A stretch of 63,876 bases of DNA, taken from contig JBGPXN010000005.1 in NCBI GenBank assembly GCA_041492755.1, positions 1-63,876 of the forward strand, in the 5' to 3' direction. The translations under genes and the position numbers were made by a program. Every line of letters starts with the position of its first letter. Position 1 is the stretch's first letter. The stretch comes from Candidatus Methylomirabilia bacterium (GTDB taxonomy: Bacteria > Methylomirabilota > Methylomirabilia > Rokubacteriales > CSP1-6). The notes below the pieces were generated by a model. That model searched no databases, was not told the origin of the DNA, and saw only the letters and a list, made by a program, of their open reading frames with translations. Of the stretch, positions 35,499-57,501 are shown piece after piece.

Positions 35499-35567
35499 CG
35501 GTGCTGAACCCGGGGACTATCCTGGCCTCGGCGTCGATGAACACGCACGTATGATGAGCACGCGCGT

Positions 35568-38500: not shown

Positions 38501-38975
38501 CGGGTACGCGCTGTCGGGACGCGTGGCCGAGGCGCTCCCGCTGCTGCAGCGGGCCGTCGATCGGCACGCCGCCATCGGCCTCACGGGTGTTCATTCCCTG
38601 TTCGAGACGCTTCAGGGGGAGGCGCTGCTCCAGGCCGGCCACGTCGACGAGGCCGCCGCCCTCGCCGATCACGCGCTGGGACTGGCGCAGAACTTCAACG
38701 AGCGTGGCCATCAGGCCTGGGCCCTGCGGCTGCTGGGCAACATCGAATCGTGTCGGTCTCGCGAGGACGTCGTGAAGGCCGAGACCATGTATCGCGATGC
38801 CATCGCGATTGCCGGCGAGCTGGGAATGCGGCCGCTGCTCGGCCGGTGTCACCTCGACCTGGGGCGCCTGTACCAGCGCACGGGCCGCCCCGAGGCCCCC
38901 GCAACCCTGGCGACGGCGCGCGCGTGCCTGGAAGAGCTGGACATGCAGCTTTGGCTGAAGGACGCGCCGCCCTGA
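35568..38975 (+). CDS. Double zinc-ribbon + class III adenylate/guanylate cyclase + AAA ATPase + TPR protein
   Basis: CxxC pairs, VTVLFADVKGS, GDGIMALFG, Walker A GEAGLGKS, FEDLHW, TPR C-terminus. Confidence 0.93.
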   Translation: MKCLQCAADNREGRRFCAQCGAPLAATCAACGFTNEPEEKFCGGCGQPLAAPAKAAPHAAAPARPAPQEAAPSGPSPAGFASPETYTPKHLAERILTSKSAVEGERKQVTVLFADVKGSMEMLADRDPEEAQRILDPILERMMDAIHRYEGTVNQVMGDGIMALFGAPLALEDHAVRGCYAALAMQEAIREYADGLRQTGGVEVLVRIGLNSGEVVVRSIGSDLRMDYSAVGQTTHMAARMEQTAVPGTILLTAETLRLAEGYVGVTPLGPITLKGLANPIEVFELIGTTASRTRLQVAAARGLSRFVGRQPELNALPQALERAAGGHGQIVALVGEAGLGKSRLFWEFAHSPRTDGWLVLESRSVSYGKATTYLPVIELLKTYFRVEDRDDAGRIRERIATKLLALDQNLERVMAPLLALLHVPVEDPAWDALDPSRRRQRTLDAVKHLVLRQSQAQPLLLVFEDLHWLDSESQAVLDSLVDSLPTARILLLVNYRPEYRHGWGGKTHYTQLQLRPLPAESAGELLTALLGDGSDLEPLKHRLIERTEGNPFFLEESVRTLVETHVLVGEPGAYELDRPLATIQMPATVQAILAARIDRLPNEEKRLLQSASVIGKDVPLVLLQTIAELPEDELHRGLGQLQARELLWEMNLFPEIEYTFKHALTHEVAYASLLQERRRALHTRMVEVIEQLYPDRLEEHIERLALHAFRGELWPKAVKYGRDAGAKALARSGHPEAVASFEQALEALGHLPQSRDVIEQSIDVRFNLRNSLWPLGELPRLLKHLREAEALAQSLGDERRLGQLSAYMSQFFAWMGEHDRAVESGQQARAIAERLGDFALRVGACFRLGQAYYALGEYRRGIVVLRSSIQDLTGDRATQRFGQTGLPSILSRAWLVWCSVEVGEFAEARLRAKEAMTIAETAAHPFDLVVASFALGVLALRKGELHDGIAVLERALELCEVGHVPFWFPLIGVWLGSGYALSGRVAEALPLLQRAVDRHAAIGLTGVHSLFETLQGEALLQAGHVDEAAALADHALGLAQNFNERGHQAWALRLLGNIESCRSREDVVKAETMYRDAIAIAGELGMRPLLGRCHLDLGRLYQRTGRPEAPATLATARACLEELDMQLWLKDAPP

Positions 38976-39013: not shown

Positions 39014-40207
39014 ATGGCGACGCCCGAGGAGCTGTTCAACCCGTTCCTGCCCGAGTTTCACGCCGATCCGTACCCGGCGTATCACCGCCTGCGGTCCATC
39101 GCGCCGGTGTACCAGACGCCGATGGGTTTCTGGGTGTTGACCCGCTACGACGACGTCGTCATGGCGTTGCGCGATCCGCGCTTCGGCCGCGACGGGTTCG
39201 ACCAACTGCTCGCCGCCATGTACGACACGGAGGGGTCCCGCCTTCCGCGGTCGATGCTGTTCCGTGATCCCCCCGATCACACCCGCCTGCGGGCGCTCGT
39301 GAGCAAGGCGTTCACCCCGCGGGTGATCGAGGGCATGCGCGCGCACATCCAGGACATCGTCGACCGGCTGCTGGATCGGGTCCAGCCCGCGGGGACGATG
39401 GACGTCATCGCGGATCTCGCGTATCCGCTGCCGGTGACCGTCATCTGCGAGATGCTCGGCGTCCCGCCGGAGGATCAGGGCAGCATCCGGCAGTGGTCCT
39501 CCGACGTCGCGCGGAGCCTCGACGCGATCGGGATCCCGGCCGATGAGGAGATCGTCGTCCGTGGACGGGAGGCGCGTCAGGCGCTCGGTGCGTACTTCCG
39601 CCGCCTGCTTCCCGAGCGTCGCCGGCAGCCTCAGGACGATCTCCTGAGCATGCTGATCGCCGCCGAGGAAGCGGGCGACAAGCTGTCCGAAGGCGAGCTG
39701 CTCGCCACCTGCGTGCTGCTGTTCATCGCCGGCCACGAGACGACGGTCAACCTGATCGGCAACGGGCTCCTGGCCCTGCTCCGTCATCCCGACCAGCTCG
39801 CGCGGCTTGCTGCCGAGCCGGCGCTGATTCAAAGCGCGGTCGAAGAGCTGCTCCGGTTCGACAGTCCCGTCCAGCGGACCGCCCGCATCACCAACGCCGA
39901 TGCCGAGATCGATGGCCACGCGATCGCGAAGGGCTCGCTGGTCGTCACCGCGATCGGCGCCGCCAACCGCGACCCGGCGCAGTTTCCCGACCCGGATCGC
40001 CTCGACATCGGCCGCCGGGACAACCGTCACGTGGCGTTCGGCTTCGGCATCCACTTCTGCCTGGGCGCGCCTCTGGCGCGGGTGGAAGGCCAGATCGCGC
40101 TCGGCACCATCATTCGGAGGATGCCGCGACTGGCGAGCGCGGGGACGCCGACGTGGCGGGAATCGTCGACGCTGCGCGGGCTCAAGACGTTTCCGGTCGC
40201 GTTCTGA
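39014..40207 (+). CDS. Cytochrome P450
   Basis: AGHETT, EELLR (ExxR), FGFGIHFCLG haem-binding Cys. Confidence 0.96.
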   Translation: MATPEELFNPFLPEFHADPYPAYHRLRSIAPVYQTPMGFWVLTRYDDVVMALRDPRFGRDGFDQLLAAMYDTEGSRLPRSMLFRDPPDHTRLRALVSKAFTPRVIEGMRAHIQDIVDRLLDRVQPAGTMDVIADLAYPLPVTVICEMLGVPPEDQGSIRQWSSDVARSLDAIGIPADEEIVVRGREARQALGAYFRRLLPERRRQPQDDLLSMLIAAEEAGDKLSEGELLATCVLLFIAGHETTVNLIGNGLLALLRHPDQLARLAAEPALIQSAVEELLRFDSPVQRTARITNADAEIDGHAIAKGSLVVTAIGAANRDPAQFPDPDRLDIGRRDNRHVAFGFGIHFCLGAPLARVEGQIALGTIIRRMPRLASAGTPTWRESSTLRGLKTFPVAF

Positions 40208-40281
40208 TCCTTCCGGCCACGTTCTGAACTTTCCGGCGACGTCGTAGCAGGTCCGGCCACGCCCGGAGGGGGAGTCTCGAC

Positions 40282-41121
40282 ATGGGACGGCTCGACAACA
40301 AGGTGGCGGTGATCACGGGGGGCGCGAGCGGGATCGGCGAGGCGACCGTGCGGCTGTTCACCAGCGAGGGCGCCCACGTCGTGATCGCCGACGTCCAGGC
40401 CGACCGCGGGCGCCGGCTCGCGGACGAGCTCGGCGCGCGCGCGAGCTTCCAGCACGTGGACGTCACGCGCGAAGCCGACGTTCGCGCGGCCGTCACCGAG
40501 ACGGTCGCGCGTCACGGGAAGCTCGACTGCCTGTTCAACAACGCGGGCTACGCTGGCGTGACGGGCGGCATCGAGACCATCTCGAGCGAGGGCTTCGATG
40601 AGACGATCGCCGTGCTCCTGCGCGGCGTCCTGCTCGGCATGAAGCACGCGGCGCCGGTGATGAAGCGCCAGGGCTCGGGGAGCATCATCAGCACCGCCAG
40701 CGTGGCCGGCCTGCGTGCGGGATACGGGCCGCACGTGTACAGCGCCGCCAAGGCCGCGGTCGTGCAGCTCACGCGCTCGGTCAGCATGGAGCTCAGCGAG
40801 AGCGGCGTCCGCGTGAACTGCATCTGTCCGGGAGGCATCGCCACCCCGATCTTCGGAAAGTCCGTCGGGCTGTCGCCCGAGGCCGCGGATCAGACGGTGG
40901 GGATCATGAAGGAAGCGCTTGCCGCGTTGCACCCGATCGGCCGCTCGGGCCTGCCGGACGACATCGCCCACGCGGCGCTGTGGTTGGCCAGCGACGACTC
41001 GAGCTTCGTGAACGGCCACGCGCTCGTGGTCGACGGCGGGCTGATCGGCGGCCGCAAGTGGTCCGATCAGCTCAGCGGACGCGCCGTGCTCCGCCAGCTA
41101 CTGGGCGTGAGCGACGCGTGA
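40282..41121 (+). CDS. Short-chain dehydrogenase/reductase
   Basis: TGGASGIG, FNNAG, YSAAK. Confidence 0.93.
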   Translation: MGRLDNKVAVITGGASGIGEATVRLFTSEGAHVVIADVQADRGRRLADELGARASFQHVDVTREADVRAAVTETVARHGKLDCLFNNAGYAGVTGGIETISSEGFDETIAVLLRGVLLGMKHAAPVMKRQGSGSIISTASVAGLRAGYGPHVYSAAKAAVVQLTRSVSMELSESGVRVNCICPGGIATPIFGKSVGLSPEAADQTVGIMKEALAALHPIGRSGLPDDIAHAALWLASDDSSFVNGHALVVDGGLIGGRKWSDQLSGRAVLRQLLGVSDA

Positions 41122-41161
41122 GGCCTGCGGTTCACAGCCACTCTGCTACACTTCGAGCACG

Positions 41162-41428
41162 ATGGACGCGCGTGACGTGAGAGCTTATGTCGAGCGGGAT
41201 TGGGGCGCGCTCGCGGCAGCCAAGCAGGAGCATTGGGCCCGCGAGTTCGCCGCGCGGGGCGCGCTGGCGACCTTCGACGCCTCGCAGGTGCTCTGGCGCC
41301 ACATGCGACAGCTCCACCCCGAGTGGCCGTCGGAAGGCGAGCGCCGCGAGGACCTGGCTCACCACGTGAGGCTGAAACGCGACCTCGATCGCGCCGCGAG
41401 TGCCGTCCGAGCGCTCACCCCTCGCTGA
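41162..41428 (+). CDS. Small hypothetical protein, putative antitoxin
   Basis: 88 aa helical ORF overlapping a nucleotidyltransferase gene; TACACT -10-like box upstream. Confidence 0.7.
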   Translation: MDARDVRAYVERDWGALAAAKQEHWAREFAARGALATFDASQVLWRHMRQLHPEWPSEGERREDLAHHVRLKRDLDRAASAVRALTPR

Positions 41429-41990
41429 GCTTCTCGCCGAGCTCGGGCAGGTCTTCGGCGACCTCGGCGTGCGCTGGTACCTGTTCGGGGCCCAAGCCGC
41501 AATCCTCTACGGCGCCGCCCGTCTCACCGCCGACGTGGACGTCACCGCCGAGCTCGGCAGCCGCCCGACCGTCGAGCTGGTCGACACTCTCACCGTTGCC
41601 GGATTCGACCTGCGAGTGGCCGACGCGACAGGGTGCGTCGAGCGCACGCGTGTCTTGCCGATGGTCCATCGCGCCACGGCGATTCCGGTGGACGTGGTGT
41701 TGGCGGGACCGGGCCTGGAGGAGCTGTTCCTGTCCCGCGCCACCGAGCGCTGGATCGGGGACGTCCGCGTCTTCGTGCTCGCCCCCGAGGATTTGGTCGC
41801 GACCAAGATCCTCGCCGGGCGGCCAAAGGATATCGAGGATGCGGCGAGCGTCGTGCGAACCCATGGCGAGCGGCTGGACGTCGAGCTCATCCGCACCACG
41901 CTGAGCTTGCTCGAGCGCGCCCTCGATCGGAGTGATCTGCTGCCCGAGCTCGAGCGCGTTCTCGAGCGGGGGCACCGTGGGACGCGGTGA
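41400..41990 (+). CDS. Nucleotidyltransferase (Pol-beta fold), putative toxin
   Basis: YLFGAQAA...TADVDV (G..DxD), PEDLVATKILAGRPKDIED. Confidence 0.8.
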   Translation: MPSERSPLAELLAELGQVFGDLGVRWYLFGAQAAILYGAARLTADVDVTAELGSRPTVELVDTLTVAGFDLRVADATGCVERTRVLPMVHRATAIPVDVVLAGPGLEELFLSRATERWIGDVRVFVLAPEDLVATKILAGRPKDIEDAASVVRTHGERLDVELIRTTLSLLERALDRSDLLPELERVLERGHRGTR

Positions 41991-42011
41991 AGGCCGCGCG
42001 GCGCCCGAGGA

Positions 42012-42794
42012 TCAGCCGAGAAAGCGCGCGACGGCGGCGGCGAAGGCCTTGGGCTGCTCCCAGGGCAGCATGTGCCCGGCGTTTTCGATCATCTCCACGC
42101 GTGCCGCTGGAACGAGCGCCTTCCAGCGCGCGGCGTACACGGGGACGATCAGCCGGTCCGCCGAGCCCCAGAGCACGAGCGTCTCTGCGCTGAGGCGGTA
42201 GAGGCGCTTGGACAGTCGCCGGTTCGGAATCGGAAAGAGGATCTTGCCGGCCATGGCCAGCCGCCGCTGGTTGCCGACGTAGAAGGTTTCGAGCGCCTTC
42301 ATGTCGGTGAGGTCGGCGCCGCCGGTGAGCAGGACGGCGCCCCGCGCCGGGTCGTGGAACAGCGCCTCCGCGATCTGATACGGCAGCAGCGCGAAGATGT
42401 CCGGGATCGGGTGCTCGTCCATCCAGAGGCCGGCCGCGCCCACCAGGACGAGCTTGGCGACGTCACGCGGCGCGGTGCACGCCATCTCCGCGGCGATCAT
42501 GCCGCCCATCGAGTGGCCGACCAGGTGCGGCTGGCTGAGGCTGAGCGCGTCGACCAGGTCCCAGCCGTGCAGCGTGAAGTCGAGCATGTCCTCGAGCAGC
42601 TCGTCGCCCGTCGACTCGCCGTAGCCCGGCCACTCCGGGGCGAAGACGTGGTAGCGCTGCGCGAGCACGTCGAGGAACGGATTCTCGGCGAGCAGGCCGC
42701 CGGCACCGTGCAGGAAGACCAACGGCGCGCCGCTGCCCCCCTCCAGCACGCGGCAGCGCGTGCCCTTCTTCGTGTCGACCACCTGCCACTTCAT
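42012..42794 (-). CDS. Alpha/beta hydrolase
   Basis: FLHGAGG, GHSMGG, WGSAD, AGH. ATG overlaps the LLM stop. Confidence 0.9.
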   Translation of the reverse strand: MKWQVVDTKKGTRCRVLEGGSGAPLVFLHGAGGLLAENPFLDVLAQRYHVFAPEWPGYGESTGDELLEDMLDFTLHGWDLVDALSLSQPHLVGHSMGGMIAAEMACTAPRDVAKLVLVGAAGLWMDEHPIPDIFALLPYQIAEALFHDPARGAVLLTGGADLTDMKALETFYVGNQRRLAMAGKILFPIPNRRLSKRLYRLSAETLVLWGSADRLIVPVYAARWKALVPAARVEMIENAGHMLPWEQPKAFAAAVARFLG

Positions 42795-44056
42795 CGCGGC
42801 CACTCGCCCCCCACGACGTCGGCGCCGGGGTGGCGCTCCTCGGGGTGGATGCGGTCGTCCATCGGGTGCATCCACCAGCGCTCGTCGTGCTTCCACTCCG
42901 GCCAGAGATCGCGCAGGTGCGGCATGACCTGCTCGGCGAAAAGCTTGCTCGAGTGGCGCGTTTTCCAGTCCGGCATGTTGCCGTTGTGCATGAGGCAGAA
43001 CAGGTGGCCGATGCGCAGCCCCTTGATGCACTCCTCGAGCTGCTGGCGCACGGTGGCCGGGCTGCCCGCGATCACGAAGCGCTCGTCCACGAGCTGCTTC
43101 CACGTGAGGTTTTCGAGGATCTTCTGGCGGGCCAGCGTGAGTTGGGAGAGCGCCCCGTACTTGATGGTCGCCATCGTCCGGTACCCGGCGGGGTCGGCGA
43201 AGGGCGGGAAGACGTGCAGGCACCGGTTGAAGAAGTAGAGGCAGTGCTCGGCGTAGAGCCGCTCGGCCTCGGCGTCGGTGTCGGCCACGCAGATGATCTG
43301 GGCGAACGCCGCCCGGTACGGTGACTCGTCCTTGCCCCGCTTGGCCACGCGCTCCCAGTAGCCGTCCAGCAGCGACTTGCCGCGCAGGTAGCCGAAGAAG
43401 GACAGGTACGAATAGTTGTAGTCGTGATCGAGACAGAAGTCCCAGGTCTCGATGGACCCGCCGCCGGGAATGTAGATCGGCGGGTGCGGCTTCTGGATCG
43501 GCTTGGGCCAGCAGTTCACCCAGCGGAGCTGGTTGTACTTGCCGTCGAAGGCGAACGGCTCCTCGCTCGCCCACGCCTTCATGATCAGGTCGTGCGCCTC
43601 GCGGTACTTGTCGCGGGTGAGCGCGGGGATCTGGCCGTAGCAGAAATTCGTGTCCATCGGCGTGCCCACCGGGAAGCCCGCCACCAGGCGGCCGCCCGAG
43701 ATCACGTCAAGCATGGCGAACTCCTCGGCGACGCGGATGGGCGGGTTGTAGCCGGCGATGGAGTTGCCGATGACGCAGATGGCCGCCCGGCTCGTGCGGC
43801 GGGCCAGGCCGGCGGCAATGATGTTCGGGGACGGCATGAGCCCGTAGCCGTTCTGGTGGTGCTCGTTGCAGCCGATACCGTCGAAGCCCAGCGTCTCCGC
43901 GTACTCGAGCTGGTCCATGTACGTGTGGTAGACGTGGTGGCCCTTGCGCGGGTCGTAGAGGGTGTTGGGGATGTCGACCCACACGCTGCGATGCTTCTCG
44001 CGGAAGTCGTCGGGGAGGTACGGCCACGGCATGAGGTTGAACCAGGTGAATTTCAT
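42791..44056 (-). CDS. Luciferase-like (LLM) flavin-dependent monooxygenase
   Basis: GFDGIGCNEHH, RVAEEFAMLDVISGGRLVAG, PKPIQKPHPPI. Confidence 0.93.
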   Translation of the reverse strand: MKFTWFNLMPWPYLPDDFREKHRSVWVDIPNTLYDPRKGHHVYHTYMDQLEYAETLGFDGIGCNEHHQNGYGLMPSPNIIAAGLARRTSRAAICVIGNSIAGYNPPIRVAEEFAMLDVISGGRLVAGFPVGTPMDTNFCYGQIPALTRDKYREAHDLIMKAWASEEPFAFDGKYNQLRWVNCWPKPIQKPHPPIYIPGGGSIETWDFCLDHDYNYSYLSFFGYLRGKSLLDGYWERVAKRGKDESPYRAAFAQIICVADTDAEAERLYAEHCLYFFNRCLHVFPPFADPAGYRTMATIKYGALSQLTLARQKILENLTWKQLVDERFVIAGSPATVRQQLEECIKGLRIGHLFCLMHNGNMPDWKTRHSSKLFAEQVMPHLRDLWPEWKHDERWWMHPMDDRIHPEERHPGADVVGGEWPR

Positions 44057-44252
44057 CAGTCGGGCCTCCGCGCGAGAAAGCATAGCGCGTTTCAAGCCCG
44101 CTGCGTTTGGTGATGAGCAGATGACCGCCGCGAATCGAGAGTAGCGGACGATGTCCGTTCCAGGGGGTCACCGGTTAGTGACCCGGAGAACTGCCGACTA
44201 GCGAATCCATGTCGTGTTGCCGTAAGAGCGCACCCATCTCGGAGAGAATGGT

Positions 44253-44520
44253 ATGGCTGACGAAGAGAAAGCCGATATCAGCGGATTGTTAGCGTTACTT
44301 GGCTCTGCGCCGTACACGATCACGGGCCAGTGGTATTACAGGCAGGCGATCCCGCTCGACGGCTTCAAGTTTGTCCGCTGCAGATTTGATAGCTGCTCGG
44401 TTTCCACCGAGAAAGGCACGTTCTCGCTCGAGCATTGTTTTTTCTCGGCATGCACTTTCTTCGTTCGGAACGAAGCAAAGACTGCTGTTCAACTCGTGAG
44501 TCTCGTCGTACCTGAGAGAT
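44253..44520 (+). pseudogene. Lower-GC hypothetical gene fragment, truncated at a junction with top6B-derived DNA
   Basis: Visibly AT-richer. LDGFKFVRCRFDSC..LEHCFFSACTF reads like a real protein, then the frame runs into top6B sequence. Confidence 0.5.
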
Positions 44521-44591
44521 CAGCCGAAGAAGGCGATCCGCTCCTCTATCAGCCGTCCGCGTGCGCGATCACCAGGGCGGTGCTCGACACC
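44521..44591 (+). repeat. Two-piece remnant of top6B (duplicates 49562-49584 joined to 49652-49705)
   Basis: CAGcCGAAGAAGGCGaTCCGCT + CCTCTATCAGCCGTCCGCGTGCGCGATCACCAGGGCGGTGCTCGACACC matches two separate segments of the top6B fragment. Confidence 0.85.
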
Positions 44592-44627
44592 CGCGGATCA
44601 GCAGGCGCTCACGACCCGGATCACCCT

Positions 44628-45479
44628 TTACTTGATCGCCCCGGCGGTGAAGCCGGCGATGAAGCGGTCGACGAAGAAGTTGTAGAGGATGGCGATGGGC
44701 ACGCTGGCGATGAAGCAGCCGGCCATGAGCGAGCCCCAGAAGTAGACGTCGCCGCGCACCAGGAACGTCGGCACGCCGACGCTCACCGTGAAGTTCTGCG
44801 CCGCGGTGATGAAGGTCAGCCCGTAGACGAACTCCTGCATCACCAGGGTCAGGCTGAAGATGACGACGGTCAGGAGCCCGGCCACCGAGATCGGGATGAC
44901 GACCTTGACGAACGCCCCGAAGCGGCTGTAGCCGTCGATCATGGCCGCCTCTTCCAGGTCGCGCGGGATCGCCTTGAAGAAGCCCATCATGAGCCAGGTG
45001 CAGAAGGGCACCGTGAACGACGGATAGACGACCACCAGCGACCAGAGCGAGTCCTGGAGGCCGAGGTCGGAGACGACGCGCGCCATGGGCAGGAAGAGCA
45101 GCGTGGGCGGCACCAGGTACGTGAGGAAGATCGCGATGCCGAGGTGCTCGCCCCAGCGACCGGTCAATCGAGCCAGGGCGTAGCCGGCCGGCACCGCGAG
45201 CACGAGCGTGATCGCCACCACCACGGCGCCCACGAAGAGGGTGTTGCCGAGCCACCGCAGGTAGAGCGTGTCGAAGAAGAGCACGCGCAGGTTCTCGAGC
45301 GTGGGGGGATCGTTGTAGATGAAGGGGTTGTTGGCGTGCTTGAGCAGGTCGCTGGTCGTCTTGAACGTCGTGATCAGCATCCAGTAGAAGGGAAACGCGC
45401 TGAACACCGTGAAGAAGACCAGCACGGCGGCGTGGACGCTCCGTTCCGCCCACCGCCTGCCGGCGCCGGTCACGCTCAC
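44628..45479 (-). CDS. Carbohydrate ABC transporter permease (MalG-like)
   Basis: FPFYWM, EEAAMIDG (EAA motif), WGSLMAG. Confidence 0.92.
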   Translation of the reverse strand: MSVTGAGRRWAERSVHAAVLVFFTVFSAFPFYWMLITTFKTTSDLLKHANNPFIYNDPPTLENLRVLFFDTLYLRWLGNTLFVGAVVVAITLVLAVPAGYALARLTGRWGEHLGIAIFLTYLVPPTLLFLPMARVVSDLGLQDSLWSLVVVYPSFTVPFCTWLMMGFFKAIPRDLEEAAMIDGYSRFGAFVKVVIPISVAGLLTVVIFSLTLVMQEFVYGLTFITAAQNFTVSVGVPTFLVRGDVYFWGSLMAGCFIASVPIAILYNFFVDRFIAGFTAGAIK

Positions 45480-46384
45480 ACCACCTCGCTGCGGCGGGCC
45501 ACGCGCAGGAGCAGGATCGCCACGGCCACCAGCAGCGGGAAGAGAAAGACGGCCACCGCCGCCCCCTCGGCCACGTCGCCCGCCTGCACCCCGGTGAAGA
45601 AGGCCAGGCTCGCCAGCACCTGCGTGGTGTCGTAGGGCCCGCCCCGCGTCAGCACGAAGATGACGATCATGTCGGTGAACGCCAGCACGAGGCCGAAGAG
45701 TCCGGCCACCAGCATGATCGGGCGGATCAGCGGCAGCGTGATCTGGAACAGGTGGCGGAGGAAGCTCGCGCCGTCCATTTGGGCGGCGTCGTGGATGTCC
45801 TGGGGGATCGAGGTGAGCCCCGCCAGCAGGATCACGGTGGCCAGCGGCAGGATACGCCACACGTGGACGGTCACGATCGAGCCCATCGCCAGATAGGGAA
45901 CGCCGAGCCACATGAACCGGTCGCCGGGGCCGAGGAACCCCATCGCCTGCAGCGTCCAGTTGAGCACGCTGTAGGTGGAGTCGAGGATCCACAGCCACCC
46001 GATGGTGCCGAGCGAGATCGGCGCCACCCACGGCAGGAGGATGAGGAGGCGCACGAACCACTTCCCGCGGAAGTCCCTGAGGAGGGCGAGCGCGAGGATC
46101 GTGCCGAGCACCATCACGAGCACCTGCGCGGTGATGGCGAAGACGAACGTGTTGACGAGCGAGGTCTGGAACTTCGTGGTGCCCGCGACGCTGATGAAGT
46201 TCCGGAGCCCCACGAACCCCAGCGTGCGGCTCCCCATGCTGATGTCGCTCACGCTGTAATAGAGCGCCAGCACGAACGGCACCCCGATCAGCAGCACGAT
46301 GTAGAGCACGGCGGGCCCGATCATGAGCGGCCCGAGCCACTCCGGCCGGTCGAGGAGGGAGCCGCGACCTCCGCGATTCGTCAC
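45476..46384 (-). CDS. Carbohydrate ABC transporter permease (MalF-like)
   Basis: FVGLRNF, LAGLTSIPQDIHDAAQMDGA, LTRGGP. Confidence 0.92.
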   Translation of the reverse strand: MTNRGGRGSLLDRPEWLGPLMIGPAVLYIVLLIGVPFVLALYYSVSDISMGSRTLGFVGLRNFISVAGTTKFQTSLVNTFVFAITAQVLVMVLGTILALALLRDFRGKWFVRLLILLPWVAPISLGTIGWLWILDSTYSVLNWTLQAMGFLGPGDRFMWLGVPYLAMGSIVTVHVWRILPLATVILLAGLTSIPQDIHDAAQMDGASFLRHLFQITLPLIRPIMLVAGLFGLVLAFTDMIVIFVLTRGGPYDTTQVLASLAFFTGVQAGDVAEGAAVAVFLFPLLVAVAILLLRVARRSEVV

Positions 46385-47412
46385 AGCGCGCGCGGCGTCG
46401 TCCGGCGCCCGGTCTGCCGGTCGAAGAACTTGAGGTCTCGGACGGGCACGGCGAAGTCCTGGGTCTGGCCGACGACGACGGGCGTGGTCACCGTGGACGG
46501 CAGCCGCGCGATCACCTTGGCGTCGCGGAACCTGGCCGCCGGCGTGCCGTACACGAGCCGGTCGGCGCCCAGGTACTCCTGCCGCTGGACCTCGAGCGGC
46601 AGCGTCAAGAGCTCGCCGTCTTCCCGCTGGACCGCACGCGGCAGGAAGTGCTCGGGCCGGAAGCCCACCAGCACGTCGGGCCCGTCCACGAGGTTCATCG
46701 GCGGCGAGCCGAGGAATCCGGCCACGAAGGTGTCGGCCGGCTCGTCGTAGACCTCCGTGGGCGAGCCGATCTGACGCACCTTGCCGCCTTGCATGACGGC
46801 GATCCGGTCACCGAGGCCCATGGCCTCGACCTGGTCGTGCGTCACGTAGATGGTCGTGGTGGCGATGCGGCGCTGGAACTGCTGCAGCTCCTCGCGGGCC
46901 GAGGTCCTTAGCTTGGCGTCGAGGTTGGAGAGCGGCTCGTCGAGCAGGAACACCGCCGGCTCGCGAATCACCGCCCGGGCCAGCGCCACGCGCTGGCGCT
47001 CGCCGCCCGACAGCTGGCGCGGCTTGCGATCGAGCAGGCGCTCGATGCCGAAGAGCGAGGCGGCCCACTGCACCTTGCCCGGGATCTCCGCCCGCGCCAC
47101 GCCCTGCGCCTTGAGCGGGAAGGCGATGTTCTTGTACACGGTCAAGTGCGGATAGAGCGCGTAGCTCTGGAAGACCATGGCGATCTTCCGGGCGCGCGGC
47201 GGCAGATCGTTCACCACCTGCCCGCCGATGAGGATCTCGCCCGAGGTTGGACGCTCGAGCCCGGCCAGCATGCGTAGCAGGGTGGTCTTGCCGCAGCCCG
47301 ACGGGCCGAGCAGGACGAGGAACTCGCCTTCCTTGGTGGCGAGGTCCACGCCGTCCACGGCCCATACGTCACCGAACTGCTTTCTGACGTCCCTGGTCTC
47401 GACAGTGGCCAT
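46381..47412 (-). CDS. Carbohydrate ABC transporter ATPase (MalK-like)
   Basis: GPSGCGKTT, LSGGERQR, DEPLSNLD, THDQVEAM. Confidence 0.94.
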   Translation of the reverse strand: MATVETRDVRKQFGDVWAVDGVDLATKEGEFLVLLGPSGCGKTTLLRMLAGLERPTSGEILIGGQVVNDLPPRARKIAMVFQSYALYPHLTVYKNIAFPLKAQGVARAEIPGKVQWAASLFGIERLLDRKPRQLSGGERQRVALARAVIREPAVFLLDEPLSNLDAKLRTSAREELQQFQRRIATTTIYVTHDQVEAMGLGDRIAVMQGGKVRQIGSPTEVYDEPADTFVAGFLGSPPMNLVDGPDVLVGFRPEHFLPRAVQREDGELLTLPLEVQRQEYLGADRLVYGTPAARFRDAKVIARLPSTVTTPVVVGQTQDFAVPVRDLKFFDRQTGRRTTPRAL

Positions 47413-47472
47413 GCGTGAGAGCGAGCGGGCGGAGACCCCGGACGCCCCGAGGTCTCCGCCGCGCGCGGCGGG

Positions 47473-48816
47473 CTAGACCAGCCCCTTGTCCTTCCACTTG
47501 GCGAAGATGCGCTTGCAGGCGGCGTCGGCCTCCTTGAGCGCCTCCTCCGGCGAGGTGGAGCCGCTGGCCGCCTTGGCGAACATGACGTTCAGCACCCAGG
47601 TGCCGAAGATCTCGTCGATGGCCGCGGTGGCGTAGCCCGGGTAGCCGACGTTGGTGGCCCAGTTGAGCACGTCGTCGAGCACCTTGTACTTGGCGGGCGG
47701 GTGGGCCTTCGGGTCGCTGGCGATGAGCTTCTTCAGGTCGGGCACGGTCTTCTCGAAGCACGGGAAGTCGTAGAACTCGCCGGCGCGGAAGGCCTCGGCG
47801 AAGTTCGTCCCGTAGTCGACGAGGAACTTCTTGGCCCCGTCGATGTTCTCGGCGAACTTCCAGGTCACGTAGCACTGCATGACGTGCTCGAGCCCGATCG
47901 CCCGGACGGGCCCGCGCAGAGCCTTGGTGAGCTGGATCTTCTGCGAGATCTCGGGGTTGTCCTTCTCCGCGGTCCGGGTGATCGAGATGGCGTTGAGGGC
48001 CAGCGAGATGGTGCCGGCGATCATCGCCCGGTTGTTGGACGAGGCGTCCCAGGTGAAGACCTCGGGCGTCATCGTCTCGGTGAAGAGCGCCTTGACGAAC
48101 TTGACGGCCTCCAGCGTCTGCTTCGAATTCAGGGTCAGGTTCCCGTTCTGGTCCTGCTCGTGGGCGCCGAAGGCGTACATGATCGTGCGCATGGCCATCC
48201 CGGTGTCGATCTCGTTCGCGAGGCCGATGCCCACCGGAATGTTCCGCTTCTTCTTGATCTCCGCGCCCTTCTTCCGCACGTCGTCCCACGTCTTCGGACC
48301 GCCGGCCATCCCGACCTCGCCGAACAGGTCCTCGCGGTAGTTGACCGGGTCGGGGGTGAAGGACGGCGAGAAGGCGTAGTACTTCTTCGTCTTCGGGTTG
48401 TAGGTGCTCTTCACCGCGAGGTCGATCGGCTTGCCGAACTTCTTCTCGAGCTCCTGGTAAACGTCCTTCATGTCGACCGCCTGCTCCTCGAAGGACGGCG
48501 GCGGCCAGTTGAACATGAATAGATCGTGGCCCTTCTGGGCGGAGACCTCGGCGGCCGCGCGCGCGTTGAGGCCGGCCAGGCCGATGTTGTCGACGGTCAC
48601 CTCGGTGTCGTTCTTCTGCCCCCATTCCACGACGTACTTCTTGTTGAACCACTCGTCGTAGGCGGGGACGAAGTGCACCCACTGCAGGATCCGCAGCTTC
48701 TTGCTGGCCGCGCGCGCCAGGCGGGGCCGGCTCACGTGAGCCGCGACGCCCACCGCCAGCGCTCCGGTCCCGGTCGTTCTGAGGAAGTCTCGACGGTTCA
48801 CGGTGCCGTTACCCAT
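47473..48816 (-). CDS. Tat-exported carbohydrate ABC substrate-binding protein
   Basis: NRRDFL Tat signal; first gene of the ABC operon. Confidence 0.88.
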   Translation of the reverse strand: MGNGTVNRRDFLRTTGTGALAVGVAAHVSRPRLARAASKKLRILQWVHFVPAYDEWFNKKYVVEWGQKNDTEVTVDNIGLAGLNARAAAEVSAQKGHDLFMFNWPPPSFEEQAVDMKDVYQELEKKFGKPIDLAVKSTYNPKTKKYYAFSPSFTPDPVNYREDLFGEVGMAGGPKTWDDVRKKGAEIKKKRNIPVGIGLANEIDTGMAMRTIMYAFGAHEQDQNGNLTLNSKQTLEAVKFVKALFTETMTPEVFTWDASSNNRAMIAGTISLALNAISITRTAEKDNPEISQKIQLTKALRGPVRAIGLEHVMQCYVTWKFAENIDGAKKFLVDYGTNFAEAFRAGEFYDFPCFEKTVPDLKKLIASDPKAHPPAKYKVLDDVLNWATNVGYPGYATAAIDEIFGTWVLNVMFAKAASGSTSPEEALKEADAACKRIFAKWKDKGLV

Positions 48817-48971
48817 AGCTCCGCTCCTTTGTGGGTTGGGGTCGGCGGGGGATAGTTGATGTTATTACCCGCTCGGACCTCGCCGTGTCAAGGGGAGCCA
48901 CGTGCGGCATGCCGGGCGCCGCGCCGGGCGTCTACCGGCCGAGCGGCGGCTCGCCGTGACCGCCGGCGCGC

Positions 48972-49343
48972 TCAGGCGATTCGCTTGAAGGCGCGACTGA
49001 ACGCCGCCTCCGATTCGTAGCCGACCTCCAGCGCCACCGCGGAGACCTTGGCGGCGCCTTCGTCCAGCCGGCGGGCCGCCACCTGCATCCGCCAGTGGGT
49101 GAGGTACTGCATCGGCGGCTGGCCCACGAAATGCCTGAAGCGCTCCGCCAGGACCGAGCGCGACCCCCGACGTCACGCGCAAGCATATCCAGCGTCCAGG
49201 GATCGGCGGGCCGCCGGTGGAGCAGGGTCAGTGCACGCCCCACCAGCGGCTCCCGCAACCCCGCCAGCCAGCCCGTCTGCTCCGCGGGTAGCGTCGCGAG
49301 ATAGCGCCGTACGACCTCGACGAACATCAGCTCGCTGAGACGC
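48972..49343 (-). pseudogene. AraC-family regulator, C-terminal fragment with a frameshift
   Basis: RLSELMFVE...PWTLDMLARDVG, frame change near 49165-49175, then SVLAERF...PPMQYLTHWRMQ...VGYESEAAFSRAFKR. No N-terminus. Confidence 0.85.
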
Positions 49344-50034
49344 AGCTCTACAAGGCCATCCAGGCGACCAAGATCATGGCGCCGCCGACCAACTGCCTCT
49401 CGCCCATCGGCGAGCGGGCGCTCCTCGCCGGGCTGTATCGGCAGATCAAGGGCGAGTTCTACACGGCGGTGACCCGGCCGCCGGCCGTGTACCGCGGCAA
49501 CCCGTTCGTGATCGAGGCGGGGCTGGCCTTCGGGCGGGGGCCGGAGCAGGTCGCGCAGGCTCAGGCGAAGAAGGCGGTTCCGCTGGCCGAAGGCGAGGGC
49601 GAGAAGGACGATCACGAGCTTGCGCGGGTCATCCGGTACGCGAACCGCGTGCCCCTCCTGTATCAGCCGTCCGCGTGCGCGATCACCAGGGCCGTGCTCG
49701 ACACCACGTGGCGCAACTACGGCGTGGCGCAGTCCCGCGGGTCGCTCCCGGCCGGGCCGATGGTGATCTTCGTGCACATGGCCTCGGTGTGGGTGCCGTT
49801 CACCAGCGAATCGAAGGAAGCCATCGCCGAGTACGACGAGATCCACAAGGAGATCGCCCTGGCGCTGCGCGAGTGCGGCCGCCGGCTCGGCGCGTTCCTC
49901 CGACGACGCGAGCGGGCGCACAGCGAGTTCCGCCGGCGCAACATCTTCGAGCTCTACATCGACGAGATCGTCGAGTCGTGTAACCGGCTCAAGGGCGGGC
50001 GACTGGCCACCGCCAAGCTGAAGGACCAGCTCCG
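49337..50034 (+). pseudogene. top6B: DNA topoisomerase VI subunit B, internal/C-terminal fragment (transducer domain)
   Basis: MAPPTNCLSPIGE, RPPAVYRGNPFVIEAGLAFG, RYANRVPLLYQ, FVHMASVWVPFTSESKEAIA. The GHKL ATPase N-terminus is absent and the 3' end is cut. Confidence 0.92.
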
Positions 50035-50141
50035 CGAGCGGGCTCAAGTACGAGCTGGACGCCCTCGCGAACAAGGACTTCCAGTACCTCACCAAGCGCT
50101 ATCTGCCCCGCAAGCTCAAGGAGAAGGACGGGCTGGACTAG
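50035..50141 (+). repeat. top6A: 3' end of topoisomerase VI subunit A, copy 1 (att-like direct repeat)
   Basis: Encodes SGLKYELDALANKDFQYLTKRYLPRKLKEKDGLD*, which resembles the C-terminus of bacterial Top6A; fused directly to the top6B fragment. Confidence 0.8.
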
Positions 50142-50177
50142 CGCGACAGTCTGACGCTCTATAATCGTCCGGCAGCC

Positions 50178-51227
50178 ATGGCGAAGATCGAACTCCTCGA
50201 CGTCTGCAAGTCGCTCGACGCCTTCCACATCCGCGATCTGAATCTGACGATTCCCGACGGCCGCACTCTGGTGATCCTGGGGCCGAGCGGCTGCGGCAAG
50301 ACGACGCTCCTGAGGATCATCGCGGGGCTGATCGACCCGGACTCGGGTCGCATCCGCTACGACGGCGTGGACGTCAAGGACACCGCGCCGGGTGCGCGGA
50401 GGATCGGCATGGTCTTCCAGAACTATGCGCTGTATCCCCACATGGATGCGCGCACCAACGTCCTCTCCTACTTCCTCTTCAGGAAGAAGACCCCGGAGCT
50501 GGACGCGCTCAAGGCGGCGAAGTACCGGCGGACCAGCGAGCTCATGGGCGTCGAGCTCGAGCATCTGCTGGACCGAAAGCCACCCACGCTGTCGGGCGGA
50601 GAGAAACAACGCGTGGCCGTCGCGCGCTGCATCACCAGGGACCCGGCGCTTTTTCTGCTGGATGAGCCGTTCTCGAACCTGGATCAGGCGCTGCGAGAAA
50701 AATATCGGGTCAGCCTGAAGATCCTCCTGAAGCAGTTCGACATCACGACCGTGTACGTCACGCACGACCACTACGAGGCCATGATCCTGGCCGATCTGCT
50801 CGCCATCATGGATCGCGGCCGGATCGAGCAGGTCGGCACCTACGAGGAGATCTACGACCGCCCCCGGAATGCGTTCGTCGCGGGCTTCCTCAACCGCCAC
50901 GTCGGGATGCCGCCGATCAGCTTCATCGCCGCCAAGGACACCGCGCAGTCACGCGTGCTCGGCGACGTGCTGGTGGGCGCGCGGCCCGAAGACGTCGAGG
51001 TGTCTCGAGAGGAACGCCCGGGCGCGACCCGAGGCGTCATCGACGCCAGCGTTGACCTGCCGTTCGTCAACGCCACGATGCTCAGCATCCGCATAGGCAC
51101 GCACGAGCTCCACGCGCAAGCCGGCGGCAGCGAGCGTTTTCGCCCCGGCGACGCGGTGTGGGTGACTTTCGCGCGCTTTCACATGTTCGACGAGTCGGGC
51201 ACGAGGCTGGGCACTCGCCCGAAATGA
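50178..51227 (+). CDS. MalK-like ABC transporter ATPase
   Basis: GPSGCGKTT, LSGGEKQR, DEPFSNLD; TATAAT upstream. Confidence 0.92.
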   Translation: MAKIELLDVCKSLDAFHIRDLNLTIPDGRTLVILGPSGCGKTTLLRIIAGLIDPDSGRIRYDGVDVKDTAPGARRIGMVFQNYALYPHMDARTNVLSYFLFRKKTPELDALKAAKYRRTSELMGVELEHLLDRKPPTLSGGEKQRVAVARCITRDPALFLLDEPFSNLDQALREKYRVSLKILLKQFDITTVYVTHDHYEAMILADLLAIMDRGRIEQVGTYEEIYDRPRNAFVAGFLNRHVGMPPISFIAAKDTAQSRVLGDVLVGARPEDVEVSREERPGATRGVIDASVDLPFVNATMLSIRIGTHELHAQAGGSERFRPGDAVWVTFARFHMFDESGTRLGTRPK

Positions 51228-51287
51228 TCCGTTCCTGCGCGGAGTACCCTCCCGCTTACAGTAGGAGGCACGAGGTCATCGGGCTCT

Positions 51288-51394
51288 CGAGCGGGCTCAA
51301 GTACGAGCTGGACGCCCTCGCGAACAAGGACTTCCAGTACCTCACCAAGCGGTATCTGCCCCGGAAGCTCAAGGAGAAAGACTGGCTGGACTAG
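51288..51394 (+). repeat. top6A: 3' end of top6A, copy 2
   Basis: 107 bp with 4 mismatches to copy 1 (3 synonymous; W instead of G), ending ...KEKDWLD*. Confidence 0.85.
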
Positions 51395-51436
51395 CCCAAC
51401 TTCCACGCGCGCCGAGTGGGAGAGCCCACGCGGCGA

Positions 51437-52099
51437 TTACTCCACGAGCAGGAGGCGCTCACCGAGCGCGTTCAGGTCGGCGATGAAGCGGTTGCAATCG
51501 GGAGGGTCGCTCCACCGGACCAGCCGCCAGTCGTCGTTCGTGACCGTCAGCAACACGCGCGCGATGTCTGCCGGGAAGAGTCCCTCGGCCTTGCTGTGAG
51601 CAGCTTCGAGCGCCGCCTCGCACGAAAGATTCATGCGGCAGCAGAATCCCCAGACGTCGGCAAGATCCTTGGGCTCGCGCCGATCCACGACGGCCGTCAG
51701 CTTGTTCGCGAGGATGTTCTCGGGGCTGTCGAGCCGCCCGAGAACGGGATGAATGTGGATTGCGCCGACATGCGCGGGGACGTCGTCGATCATGTCGAGC
51801 TTCAGGATGACGTCGGCGGCCGTCACGTTGACGCGAACGAGCCGATCGTCACGCTGCAGCACGTCCACCTGCCAATCGGCGCGCTCGGCGATCGCATGGA
51901 TGACACGCTGCGACCACAGACCGAAGCGCGCATCGTCGTTCACGAAGAGGTCGAGATCGTCCGAGAACCGATGGTGGAGATATCCGCGAGAGGCCGCCGT
52001 CCCACCCGTCAAGTAGAAGTCCGTTTCGACCGACGCCACTCGAGCGAGGACCGCGTCCTGCAGGGGATACATGCGGTCGAAGAAGAAGGTACGGTCCAT
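51437..52099 (-). CDS. AbiEii-family nucleotidyltransferase (type IV TA toxin)
   Basis: FYLTGGTAASRGYLHHRFSDDLDLF, ILANKLTA..DRREPKDLADVW. Confidence 0.9.
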   Translation of the reverse strand: MDRTFFFDRMYPLQDAVLARVASVETDFYLTGGTAASRGYLHHRFSDDLDLFVNDDARFGLWSQRVIHAIAERADWQVDVLQRDDRLVRVNVTAADVILKLDMIDDVPAHVGAIHIHPVLGRLDSPENILANKLTAVVDRREPKDLADVWGFCCRMNLSCEAALEAAHSKAEGLFPADIARVLLTVTNDDWRLVRWSDPPDCNRFIADLNALGERLLLVE

Positions 52100-52116
52100 C
52101 CCGTGGGCAGCGGGCA

Positions 52117-52401
52117 CTACACGAGGTGTGGGCGATGTTCGGGCAGCCAGGCGACGAGGAAGTCGAGCCCGCGGCGGCGGGTCTCGGATCGTACCCGTGC
52201 TCGCCACTCAGGCCAACCTCTCACGAGATCACGGAAGCCGAGCCAGCGCACGATTTCCCGGTAGGGCGCGTACTCCAGTACGCGAACGGCCGCCCACGTC
52301 CGATCAAGACGGCCGAGGGTGATCTCTCCGGCAAGCAGGCGTCGAAAGGTCGCCTCGTCGATGTCGTAGTCCCACACGAATGGAAGTCGATCCGCACCCA
52401 T
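52117..52401 (-). CDS. Small putative antitoxin upstream of AbiEii
   Basis: 94 aa, FVWDYD..WAAVRVLEYAP; co-oriented just upstream of the toxin. Confidence 0.75.
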   Translation of the reverse strand: MGADRLPFVWDYDIDEATFRRLLAGEITLGRLDRTWAAVRVLEYAPYREIVRWLGFRDLVRGWPEWRARVRSETRRRGLDFLVAWLPEHRPHLV

Positions 52402-52477
52402 GGGATCGATCGTATACGATCCTGGCCGAGGTCGTCCCTCTCTTGGCTTGCGAGAGGGGTGCCTCTTGAGCTCGGGG

Positions 52478-55400
52478 TCAGCGGATCGACCGGAGCTGCC
52501 CCGATCCCGCTGCCCGGCCGGTCACGTCGCCGACGAAGGTCTCCTCCAGGGGCTGGCCACGGTTGCCGAAGCCGGTTGCCCACAGCTCGATCTGGAAGGC
52601 CGAGCCGGTCGAACGTCCGACGTACCAGTTGCCCGTCAGGCGATCGTGGACGATCGCGTCCGCCTTGCCATCCCCCGTCAGGTCGGCGACGAAGACTTCC
52701 TCGACGGTCGGGCCGCGGTTGCCGAAGCGGGAGACCCAGGGCTCGATGGTGAAGCTGGCGCCGGTGGAGCGGCCGACGTACCAGTCCCCGGTCTGGATGT
52801 CGTGGATGACGGCGTCGGCGGAGCCATCACCGGTCACGTCCGCGACGAAGACTTCCTCCACGGCCGGGCCACGGTTGCCGAAGCGCGTGATCCACTGCTC
52901 GATGGTGAAGCTGGCGCCCGTGGAGCGGCCGACGTACCAGTCGCCGGTCTGGACATCGTGGATGACGGCGTCGGCGCGGCCGTCGCCGGTCACGTCGGCG
53001 ACGAAGACTTCCTCGATAGTGGGACCACGGTTGCCGAAGCGGGCGACCCAGTGCTCGATTTCGAAGCGCGTGCCGGTGGAGCGGCCGACGTACCAGTCGC
53101 CGGTCTGGACGTCGTGGATGACGGCGTCGGCGCGGCCGTCGCCGGTGACGTCGGCGACGAAGACTTCCTCGAGGGCGGGACCACGGTTGCCGAAGCGCGC
53201 GACCCAGTGCTCGATGGCGAAGCTGGCGCCGGTGGAGCGGCCGACGTACCAGTCGCCGGTCTGGACGTCGTGGATGATGACGTCGGCCCGACCGTCGCCG
53301 GTGACGTCGGCGACGAAGACTTCCTCGAAGTCGGGTCCACGATTGCCGAAGTTCGAGACCCAGTGCTCGATCTCGAAACTGGTGCCGGTGGAACGGCCGA
53401 CGTACCAGTCGCCGGTCTGGACGTCGTGGATGACCGCGTCGACCTTGCCGTCGCCGGTGACGTCGGCGAGGAAGACCTGCTCGGTGGCGGGCCCACGATT
53501 GCCGAAACGGGAGACCCAGCGCCCGATGTCGAGGCTGGAGCCGGTGGAGCGCCCGACGAACCAGTCGCCGGTCTGGGCGTCGTGGATGATGGCGTCCGCC
53601 CCGGGGTCGATGGCGAAGCTCGCGCTGACGGCAACTGCCGCCGTCACCGTGACCGTACACGACCCGGTGCCGCTGCAACCGCCTCCAGTCCAGCCGGCGA
53701 AGCTCGAGCCCGCGGTCGCGGTGGCGGTCAGCGTCACCGAGGTGCCGCTGGTGAAGGAGTCGGAGCACGCGGGAGGGCACGCGATACCTGACGGTGACGA
53801 CGCCACCGTCCCGCTGCCGGAACCCGGCGTGCTCACCGAGAGCGCGAACGATGACACCGGGGTGACGGGGGCGAACGACGCGAACACCGAGGTGGCCGCG
53901 CCGACGGTGACGCTGCACGAGCCCGTGCCGCTGCAGCCGCCGCCCGTCCAGCCGGTGAAGCTCGAGCCCGCGGCCGCGGTGGCGGTCAAGGTGACCGACG
54001 TGGCATTGCCGTACGTCTGGGCGCAGTCCGCGCCGCAGTTGATTCCCGGGGCCGACGACGCGACTGTCCCGGCGCCGGCGCCCGCTCTGATCACCGTGAG
54101 CGTCGCCGCCGGAGGCGGAGTGTTCTCCGTCCCGTAGATGCGGAGCGACCAGCTGTCCCAGGTGCCGACGTCCACGGCCGCCCGGTCGGCGACACGCAGC
54201 GTCCAGTTGCCATCGGCCGGCTCGCCCCAGTGGCGCACCGACGTGAAGACCCAGGCCGAGAAGTTGTCGCCGCTATCGGCCGATCGGACGGTCGCCAGAC
54301 GACTCATCGTGCCCGAGGGCGACGTCAGCGTGACCTCGAGGTCGCCCCGATACGGATGCGTCGCGCTGAACACCACCTCCACGTGCTCGACCTGAAAGCC
54401 GGCATGTCCCGCGATGGTGATCGTATCGGTGCGTCCGCTGGCGTCGTTGTCCGGGATGCCGAGGTTGACGTTGTGAGTCACCGCGGGGATCGCCACCTCG
54501 GGACCGACGCCGGGCCACTGGCCGGCGAGATTGACGGCAGCGGCCGCGTCGATGAGGCCGAAGCCGAAGCGCTCGTTGTGCGGGAAGGCCCCGGTCGTCC
54601 AGCCGGCATCCGCCGGCTGGACCTTCACGGCGGTCCGGACCAGAACGTGCTTGACGTCCCGCCAGGTGAGGTTGGGATTCTGGGCCAGCATCAGCGCGAT
54701 CGTCCCGGACACCAGGGGCGTGGCGGAGGAGGTTCCGCCGAACGTGCTCGTGTAGTCGGACGCGCTGTAGCCGTTGCCGCCGACGAGATCGGTCGTGGTG
54801 ATGCCGCGGCTGCCGCCGCTCGACCCGGCGGTCACGAACATCGCCGAGCAGGCCTCGCTGTACGAGGCCGCCTGTCCGGTGTCGGCCAGCGCGCCGACGG
54901 CGATCACGTAGCGGTTGTTCGCGTACCCGTCGAAGTTGCAGTTGTCGCCGGATCCACCGTTGCCGGCGGCCCACGTGAAGATCCGGCCCCGACCGTTGCG
55001 CCCGGTCGTGATCGCGTTCGCGATGGAGGCCAGCGTGAGCGGACCCGGTCCCTCCAGCGTGCGTCCGTCGTCCGACGGTCCCCAGGAGTTGCTCGCGATG
55101 TGGATCGCGTCGGCCATGTAGCCGAGGGCATCGGCCTCCTGCTGGTCGGACGTCGGCGCCGCGATGAGACGCAGCCCGGCCAGTGTGGCCAGGGGCGCGG
55201 CGCCGCTCACGCCGAGGCCGTTGTCGCCGCGGGCGGCCGCGATGCCCGCCACCGCGGTGCCGTGAAAGTCGACGGACAGGGTCGGACTGGGATCGGCGTC
55301 GTTGAAGTTGAAATCGAACGACAGCGCGCTCGAGTAGTTCGAGACCAGGTCCGGGTGAGTGTGCTGCAGGCCGTCGTCGACGATGCCGATCACGATGCCG

Positions 55401-56401: not shown

Positions 56402-56433
56402 CCGCAAGCTCAAAGAGAAAGACTGGCTGGACT
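56402..56433 (+). repeat. top6A: 3' end of top6A, copy 3 (32-bp core)
   Basis: CCGCAAGCTCAAAGAGAAAGACTGGCTGGACT; 2 synonymous mismatches to copy 2; the stop TAG is replaced by TGG. Confidence 0.8.
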
Positions 56434-56446
56434 GGAACCGGGCGGA

Positions 56447-57022: not shown

Positions 57023-57159
57023 GGCTGTTCCTTCACCCCGAACTGTAGTCACTGACGGATGAGCCGTCAATGTCGCGAAAGCGTGACTGTGGCCGGACGG
57101 TGACACTCGCGGAACAGTGACGGCTGCCCGCTCGGAGACGAGGATGCTCGAAGACGAGG

Positions 57160-57501
57160 TATCTGCGCGCGCTGCTGTCGATCGACCCGGGAGACGCCGA
57201 CGTGCGTGCGATGAGCCCGGCGCAGCGGCGCGGTGAGACCTTCGAGGCGCTCCGGCGCCTGCTCGTTCACGCGGGCCAGCAGCGGCCGCGAGTGCTGGTG
57301 ATCGAGGACCTGCACTGGATCGTGGGCCTCGGCCATCTCGACGCGGCGCGGGGCCGGCGTGAAGAGGCGCGCGAGCACTATCGGGCGGCGTGGGCGATCA
57401 TCTCGGGGCTGCGCGCACGCACTCAGGATCCCGAGCTTCGTGCCGGGCTTCTGTCTTCACCCTTGATCCTCGAAGTCGAGGACCTGGCGCGGCGGGGATA
57501 G
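57160..57501 (+). pseudogene. Internally deleted remnant of an AAA-ATPase/TPR (cyclase-STAND-like) gene
   Basis: TFEALRRLL...RPRVLVIEDLHWI is fused in frame to a C-terminal TPR end (GLGHL..ARGRREEAREHY...); no start or Walker A. Confidence 0.75.

Follow-up and report, generated by a model that had tools for sequence, protein, structure and literature searches.

A short direct repeat of a topoisomerase VI gene brackets an ABC transporter operon in a Rokubacteriales contig and may mark recombination with a related strain

How does a gene fragment of some 71 nucleotides (nt) come to lie on the far side of a transporter operon from the gene that it resembles? This question is raised by a 63,876-nt stretch of DNA, hereafter the window, from a Candidatus Methylomirabilia bacterium of the Rokubacteriales (GenBank assembly GCA_041492755.1, contig JBGPXN010000005.1, positions 1 to 63,876). 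The window comprises all of contig C231, one of the 329 contigs of a metagenome-assembled genome (MAG; G000) that is 88% complete with 4.8% contamination. Its G+C content is 69%, and the relatives of its top6B place it in Candidatus Rokubacteria / Methylomirabilota. The gene is top6B, for the B subunit of topoisomerase VI, which is present as one long fragment (the long copy) and one short, distant element (the relic). A first-pass annotation had proposed that the relic copies two non-adjacent segments of top6B, that a complete sugar ATP-binding cassette (ABC) operon and an AraC pseudogene fill the approximately 4.7 kb between the copies, and that top6B served as a recombination anchor for the acquisition of this cargo.

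The larger part of the relic is a 54-nt core at 44538-44591 (+) that agrees with 49652-49705 in the long copy at 51 of 54 bases and contains the codons for PLLYQPSACAITRAVLDT of the transducer domain. This is the sole match of the core in the window at up to 3 mismatches, and a second match arose in 0 of 100 dinucleotide shuffles. A repeat search of the window paired 44533-44591 with 49647-49705. The smaller part, at 44520-44537 (+), corresponds to 49561-49578 in a variable loop, reads QPKKAI and is identical at 16 of 18 bases; with up to 2 mismatches allowed, no other place in the window matches it, and shuffles lead us to expect 0. In a local-alignment test, the observed score of the short piece was attained in 3 of 2000 shuffles. 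Both pieces are colinear with top6B and in the same orientation. The 54-nt core and the 18-nt piece together form a direct repeat that brackets a 4.75-kb block containing the ABC operon and the AraC pseudogene. The proposal that 44521-44591 copies two separate top6B segments is thereby borne out: both matches hold on proper alignment, both are unique in the window and neither is reproduced by window shuffles.

The two pieces of the relic are joined across a deletion of 72-73 nt between two CCGCTC hexamers, as seen in alignment with relatives. Ancestral-type alleles carry CCGCTC at both places (relatives read GTGCCGCTCCTC), and the long copy reads CCCCTC at one of them. Because the hexamer is present at both sites in ancestral-type alleles and mutated at one site in the long copy, the relic appears to carry a slippage deletion between hexamer repeats. 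This refines the earlier suggestion of a join at a CCGCT/CCCCT microhomology: the ancestral pair is CCGCTC/CCGCTC and it is the long copy that has mutated. The right end of the relic (44591/44592) meets unrelated DNA. To its left lies an orphan non-coding stretch of 56% GC (44069-44519) with no Pfam or Rfam match. This 452-nt stretch has no homologue in the genome or in the fetched loci and belongs to no RNA family; neither a promoter-like nor a terminator-like site was found in it or in two spacers. The odds are about even that the approximately 71-nt element descends from a second top6B allele as a dead remnant without a function of its own.

We considered whether the repeat could be a chimeric join between strains made during assembly. 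The MAG is fragmented into 329 contigs, and the repeat copies differ by about 5%, comparable to differences between strain variants. However, contigs from three other metagenome samples of the Joint Genome Institute (JGI; samples 3300053056, 3300052987 and 3300052992), found through the exact protein of an ABC ATPase gene at 50178-51227, show the whole arrangement. They are 99.88-99.89% identical to the window, colinear and gap-free, and the longest runs from 40178 to 55370, taking in the relic and every junction as far as a protease gene. The JGI contigs bear single-nucleotide polymorphisms of their own, including one at 49876 that introduces a stop codon into the top6B fragment, indicating that they come from independent populations. 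Moreover, non-top6B DNA lies on both sides of the relic, and a join at a shared 31-mer cannot yield such an element. A chimeric join is thus exceedingly improbable, and repeat-induced misassembly was rejected on the geometry of the flanks and the replication in other samples. These data indicate that the repeat arrangement is not a one-off misassembly, as it is reproduced by three independent metagenome contigs.

The long copy is itself truncated. It occupies 49346-50033 (+) and encodes the transducer domain, approximately codons 326-565 of about 650 (PF09239, E = 1.6e-55). Relatives match it from 49344-49346 to 50033; the closest of them are L149, G041 and G042 (91-94%). Fused directly to it are the last 36 codons of top6A (50034-50147, +; 91% to Top6A residues 333-367 by tblastn; repeat family D1). 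A second top6A 3' end lies at 51283-51400 (+; 97% to residues 332-367) and is 96% identical to the first over 108 nt. The third, at 56402-56436 (+), is a 35-nt remnant of the last 11 or so codons in which the stop codon has become TGG; blastn matches it to relatives and to copies 1 and 2. The top6B ATPase half (GHKL domain) and the top6A core were not found anywhere in the 88%-complete assembly, where the top6 remnants are top6B codons ~326-565 and the last 36 codons of top6A only. Intact top6B frames of 590-750 aa stand beside top6A in 20 of 41 relatives. Viewed more widely, the locus is what remains of a wrecked top6B-top6A operon.

The segregating nonsense variant at 49876 indicates that the top6B fragment is no longer under selection. 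Judging from the annotation of an 88%-complete assembly, the organism has no working topoisomerase VI, and the annotated "topoisomerase VI B" genes of 262-315 aa are pseudogene fragments. We thus see, replicated across samples, a topoisomerase VI operon that has been dismantled in a natural soil population. Two variants among the four assemblies alter the called open reading frame (ORF): at 49289, T>G abolishes the stop that precedes the top6B fragment and the ORF grows to 315 aa, and at 49876, C>A makes a stop inside the fragment and cuts the ORF to 219 aa (in L129). The fused top6B'-top6A' ORF has no exact database record. Separately, a Syntrophobacteraceae MAG (L069) carries a duplication of the last 37 top6A codons, from codon 331, about 650 bp downstream of the intact gene (10343-10454 and 11105-11215).

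Where did the second copy of top6B come from? It could have arisen in place, if the ABC/AraC block was inserted in or beside top6B with a long target duplication, or if top6B was duplicated locally, and the copies then diverged. As in the criteria of PMC2853133, a direct repeat of more than 30 bp surrounds a block of less than 20 kb without mobility genes. The two copies are also mutually closest and have clade-specific states in common. The differences between them argue otherwise. All three core differences are synonymous and at third codon positions. L149, an intact sister top6B that is followed by top6A and has 94% nucleotide identity to the long copy, carries the relic's base at all three sites, and the relic and the long copy have derived bases in common at two other sites. 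These states give the tree ((relic, long copy), L149), with 3 changes on the long-copy branch and 0 on the relic.

Had both copies been dead from the duplication onwards, changes should be blind to codon position and the long copy should have decayed. The probability of three synonymous third-position changes out of three under neutral decay is (1/3)^3 = 0.037, and decay is not seen. The long copy deviates at 1 column that is at least 95% conserved, compared with a mean of 1.2 in intact relatives, and 31 of its 41 differences from L149 are at third positions. If instead selection had acted on the long copy and the relic alone had drifted neutrally, about 3/4 of the changes would be expected on the relic, and the probability of 0 out of 3 is ~0.016. 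In these alignments the long copy shows no protein-level decay and appears to have been functional until recently, and hence was presumably not inactivated when the repeat arose.

The short piece differs from the long copy by two first-position changes and either a T/C difference or a 1-nt indel. Both first-position changes have states that are also found in functional relatives, and the piece is closer to the alleles of other lineages (CAGCCG in L150, GCGATC in L022/L023) than to the long copy. All of the relic's states were seen among 74 relatives and none is unique to it. With so few sites caution is due, but these data suggest that the relic is most likely what is left of a second allele, still functional until fairly recently, and not the product of a duplication in place; we regard an in-place event as unlikely. 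We also rejected template switching from the present long copy, which is missing ancestral states that the relic holds. How two repeat copies differ is a simple discriminator between displacement by a foreign allele and duplication in place.

The block between the copies contains what had been proposed, a complete sugar ABC operon and an AraC pseudogene, as confirmed by Pfam and the reading frames. The operon is intact at 44628-48816 on the minus strand (BPD_transp_1 twice, ABC_tran and SBP_bac_1; gene calls in L129). It comprises two permease genes (44628-45479 and 45476-46324, both BPD_transp_1), an ATPase gene (46381-47412, ABC_tran) and a solute-binding protein gene (47473-48816, SBP_bac_1). 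With a binding protein, two permeases and an ATPase, it is predicted to encode a binding-protein-dependent importer of the sugar type. The AraC-family regulator pseudogene (48925-49345, -) retains the C-terminal helix-turn-helix only (PF12833, HTH_18, on a called piece of 51 aa); its N-terminal domain is lost and there is one frameshift near 49160. We found no mobility or prophage genes in the block, where Pfam detects the ABC transporter genes and the AraC fragment only, and no integrase or transposase in a Pfam search between 33.9 and 61 kb.

Homology of the operon to relatives is confined to 44629-48831. Orthologues occur family-wide and are 79-90% identical in many genera, with a different context in each. 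The nearest are in genus g45, at 89-90%, versus 74-76% for a reference block, which is equally distant from g45 and the other genera. The operon is missing from the genomes with the closest top6B (L149, G041 and G042). Adjoining blocks therefore differ in their nearest relatives, which hints at import by recombination but falls short of proof. Neighbouring gene blocks have been reshuffled without mobile-element genes. In every relative the homology ends at the operon's borders; intergenic DNA is not alignable at 70-80% divergence, hence we make no claim of a self-mobile cassette. As a side observation, two sites elsewhere in G000 (C259 4801-5108 and C289 16601-16911) are empty where G060 and G113 have the same ABC operon; the C289 site holds palindromic repetitive extragenic palindromic (REP)-like elements.

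What sequence of events could have produced this arrangement? In the first step of the most likely history, DNA from a closely related Rokubacteria strain, with the ABC operon and AraC upstream of top6B, would have recombined with a resident top6B-top6A locus. One crossover would have been homologous, in the conserved 3' half of top6B, and the other join illegitimate, inside the resident gene near codon 446. Such a combination of one homologous and one non-homologous end is homology-facilitated illegitimate recombination, also called sequential displacement. The 5' part of one allele would have ended up beyond the new block, where it forms a direct repeat with the other allele, and the downstream top6B would have remained intact. 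The displaced piece would later have been trimmed to 71 nt, one step being the slippage deletion between the CCGCTC repeats. More recently, microhomology deletions would have fused AraC' to top6B at codon ~326 and top6B codon ~565 to top6A codon ~332, and these two fusions would have killed topoisomerase VI. We infer the identity of the donor, which way the transfer went, in what order the events took place and which allele was resident.

Homology-anchored recombination with a related strain predicts both allelic differences between the copies and an undecayed long copy. One-sided recombination of this kind is the simplest fit, and the chances are roughly balanced that it displaced a top6B fragment with DNA from a related strain. 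The idea of top6B as an anchor for cargo is supported in part: true homologues bracket the ABC/AraC block, their differences look allelic, the long copy is undecayed and neighbouring blocks have different nearest relatives. The ABC operon, conserved across the family, is no more than a candidate for the incoming cargo. The AraC side is not an insertion boundary: the 75% match of the pseudogene to the intact orthologue in G150 stops at 49342, and the junction of AraC' with top6B' lies within 49342-49346. Since AraC is truncated exactly where top6B begins, this junction would be a later deletion.

Several further observations weigh against displacement by a related strain's allele. The ABC operon is native to the family, and only its unusually high similarity to one genus suggests a foreign origin. 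No other sequence is as close to the relic as the long copy, or to the long copy as the relic, which fits an old in-genome duplication as well. The statistics draw on just 3 to 6 substitutions across some 72 nt. In metagenome contigs searched with two sequence patterns, we found no living allele of the relic (donor) type; an intact gene with CAGCCGAAGAAGGCGATCCCGCTC and the core states of the relic would, if found, identify the second allele. The alignment across related genomes that the first-pass annotation had called for returned no genome with colinear flanks and no empty site between top6B homologies. Neither an empty site nor an intermediate state occurs in any genome, none of 80 related loci has the flanks of the window, and these flanks show no synteny at the DNA or protein level with the genomes that have the closest top6B.

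The ancestral surroundings of top6B add to these points. Its ancestral upstream neighbour sits on another contig of G000 (C262, 598-2700; 86% identical to L022), and the left flank of the relic is not that neighbour. On C262, synteny ends where top6B should begin, and unrelated DNA with two minus-strand tRNA-like genes follows instead. The position of this neighbour on C262 means that extra rearrangements are needed. C262 and C231 are linked by binning only, within a MAG of the completeness and contamination given above.

Could the locus instead be a patchwork left by double-strand-break repair, in which Ku/LigD or microhomology-mediated joining stitched together at least two molecules and the relic is filler DNA, not an anchor? 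The genome encodes Ku, the examined junctions show 0-7 nt of microhomology, and the short blocks that make up the locus as a mosaic differ in their nearest relatives. The relic itself is very small, with orphan non-coding DNA beside it. Yet the five top6B and top6A fragments lie in one orientation and in gene order within 12 kb, which is unlikely by random capture, and the allelic differences imply several source molecules with a common top6 locus, which points to a role for homology. We rate repair patchwork a doubtful explanation, though still a live rival. ComEC and DprA genes are encoded in the genome alongside Ku; as gene predictions, the three are permissive only, for DNA uptake and end joining.

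A dedicated system for site-specific integration, with conserved top6 motifs serving as its attachment sites, would explain why copies of the top6A 3' end begin at one and the same codon (331-332) both in the window and in the unrelated MAG L069. However, no recombinase gene was found in or near the blocks, and the boundaries of the top6B repeat are common to no other genome. A second top6B fragment was found in 0 of 80 related loci, each of which has one copy, inside an intact top6B. The copies also differ as alleles do, unlike an identical attachment core. Such a system is therefore very unlikely to have been at work here.

Displacement of an allele by homology-anchored recombination has precedents. 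In the effector-immunity arrays of the Vibrio cholerae type VI secretion system, sequential displacement has been proposed to occur by homology-facilitated illegitimate recombination (Kirchberger et al. 2017, PMC5361080), a mechanism credited there to de Vries & Wackernagel 2002 and Prudhomme et al. 2002. The window resembles these arrays in that a conserved gene is the anchor, a new block lies beside it and a fragment of an earlier allele is kept as an orphan; both have direct repeats of different allelic origin without a recombinase gene. The anchor here, however, is a topoisomerase operon of the housekeeping type where theirs is a toxin locus, and what was displaced, a 5'-internal fragment, lies upstream of the block. 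The anchor gene itself was later destroyed.

Insertion with long target duplication (Nobusato et al. 2000; Furuta, Abe & Kobayashi 2010, PMC2853133) is similar in the size of the block (<20 kb), the lack of mobility genes and direct repeats far longer than the target duplications of transposons. The cargo here is not a restriction-modification system, and the differences between the copies, at few sites, argue against a single target sequence. At rearrangement hotspot (Rhs) and contact-dependent inhibition (CDI) loci, displaced gene ends lie beside a conserved core as orphan 3' fragments (cited in PMC5361080), and the string of three top6A 3' ends in the window is similar. The Rhs/CDI fragments are functional toxin tips with immunity genes, whereas the top6 fragments are non-functional relics. 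The locus is best classed as a recombination scar of an already known kind, and it reveals no new mechanism.

Left of the repeat, up to 44068, a luciferase-like monooxygenase gene and a hydrolase gene lie on the minus strand; this two-gene unit (42012-44068) alone is conserved in the luciferase context of sister lineages, with homology ending at 44068. Between top6A copies 1 and 2 is a solitary ABC ATPase gene of the MalK/UgpC type (50178-51227, +; PF00005 and a weak TOBE_2 match), whose exact protein is the one present on the three other contigs. An AbiEii toxin-antitoxin pair and the gene for the protease, of family S8, lie between copies 2 and 3. Nucleotidyltransferase toxin-like genes flank the rearranged region (41223-41990, +, DUF6036; 51437-52099, -, AbiEii). 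The third top6A end is adjoined on its right by a gene for a Uma2-family putative endonuclease (PF05685; 56447-57022, -). The Uma2 family recurs at about 7563-7917, and the genome and its relatives hold many diverged copies. At 57121-57501 (+), a 126-aa frame with a partial AAA_16 match is possibly a gene relic related to the 1144-aa cyclase/AAA_16/TPR protein at 35541-38975.

If homology-anchored capture of blocks beside conserved genes were a frequent, genome-wide route to new gene order in uncultured Rokubacteria, it would leave datable scars. We hold this generalization to be rather improbable. If it is true, surveying these scars could be a way to measure recombination with foreign DNA where the organisms themselves cannot be cultured. 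Two other contigs of G000 carry direct repeats of gene fragments, with copies 6-12 kb apart: C54 (554-686 and 12503-12636), where 9 of 12 differences are at third positions, and C144 (1377-1515 and 7046-7184), where 8 of 11 are. These may be scars of the same kind as the top6B relic. C144 begins with a serine recombinase gene, and C54 resembles a defence island.

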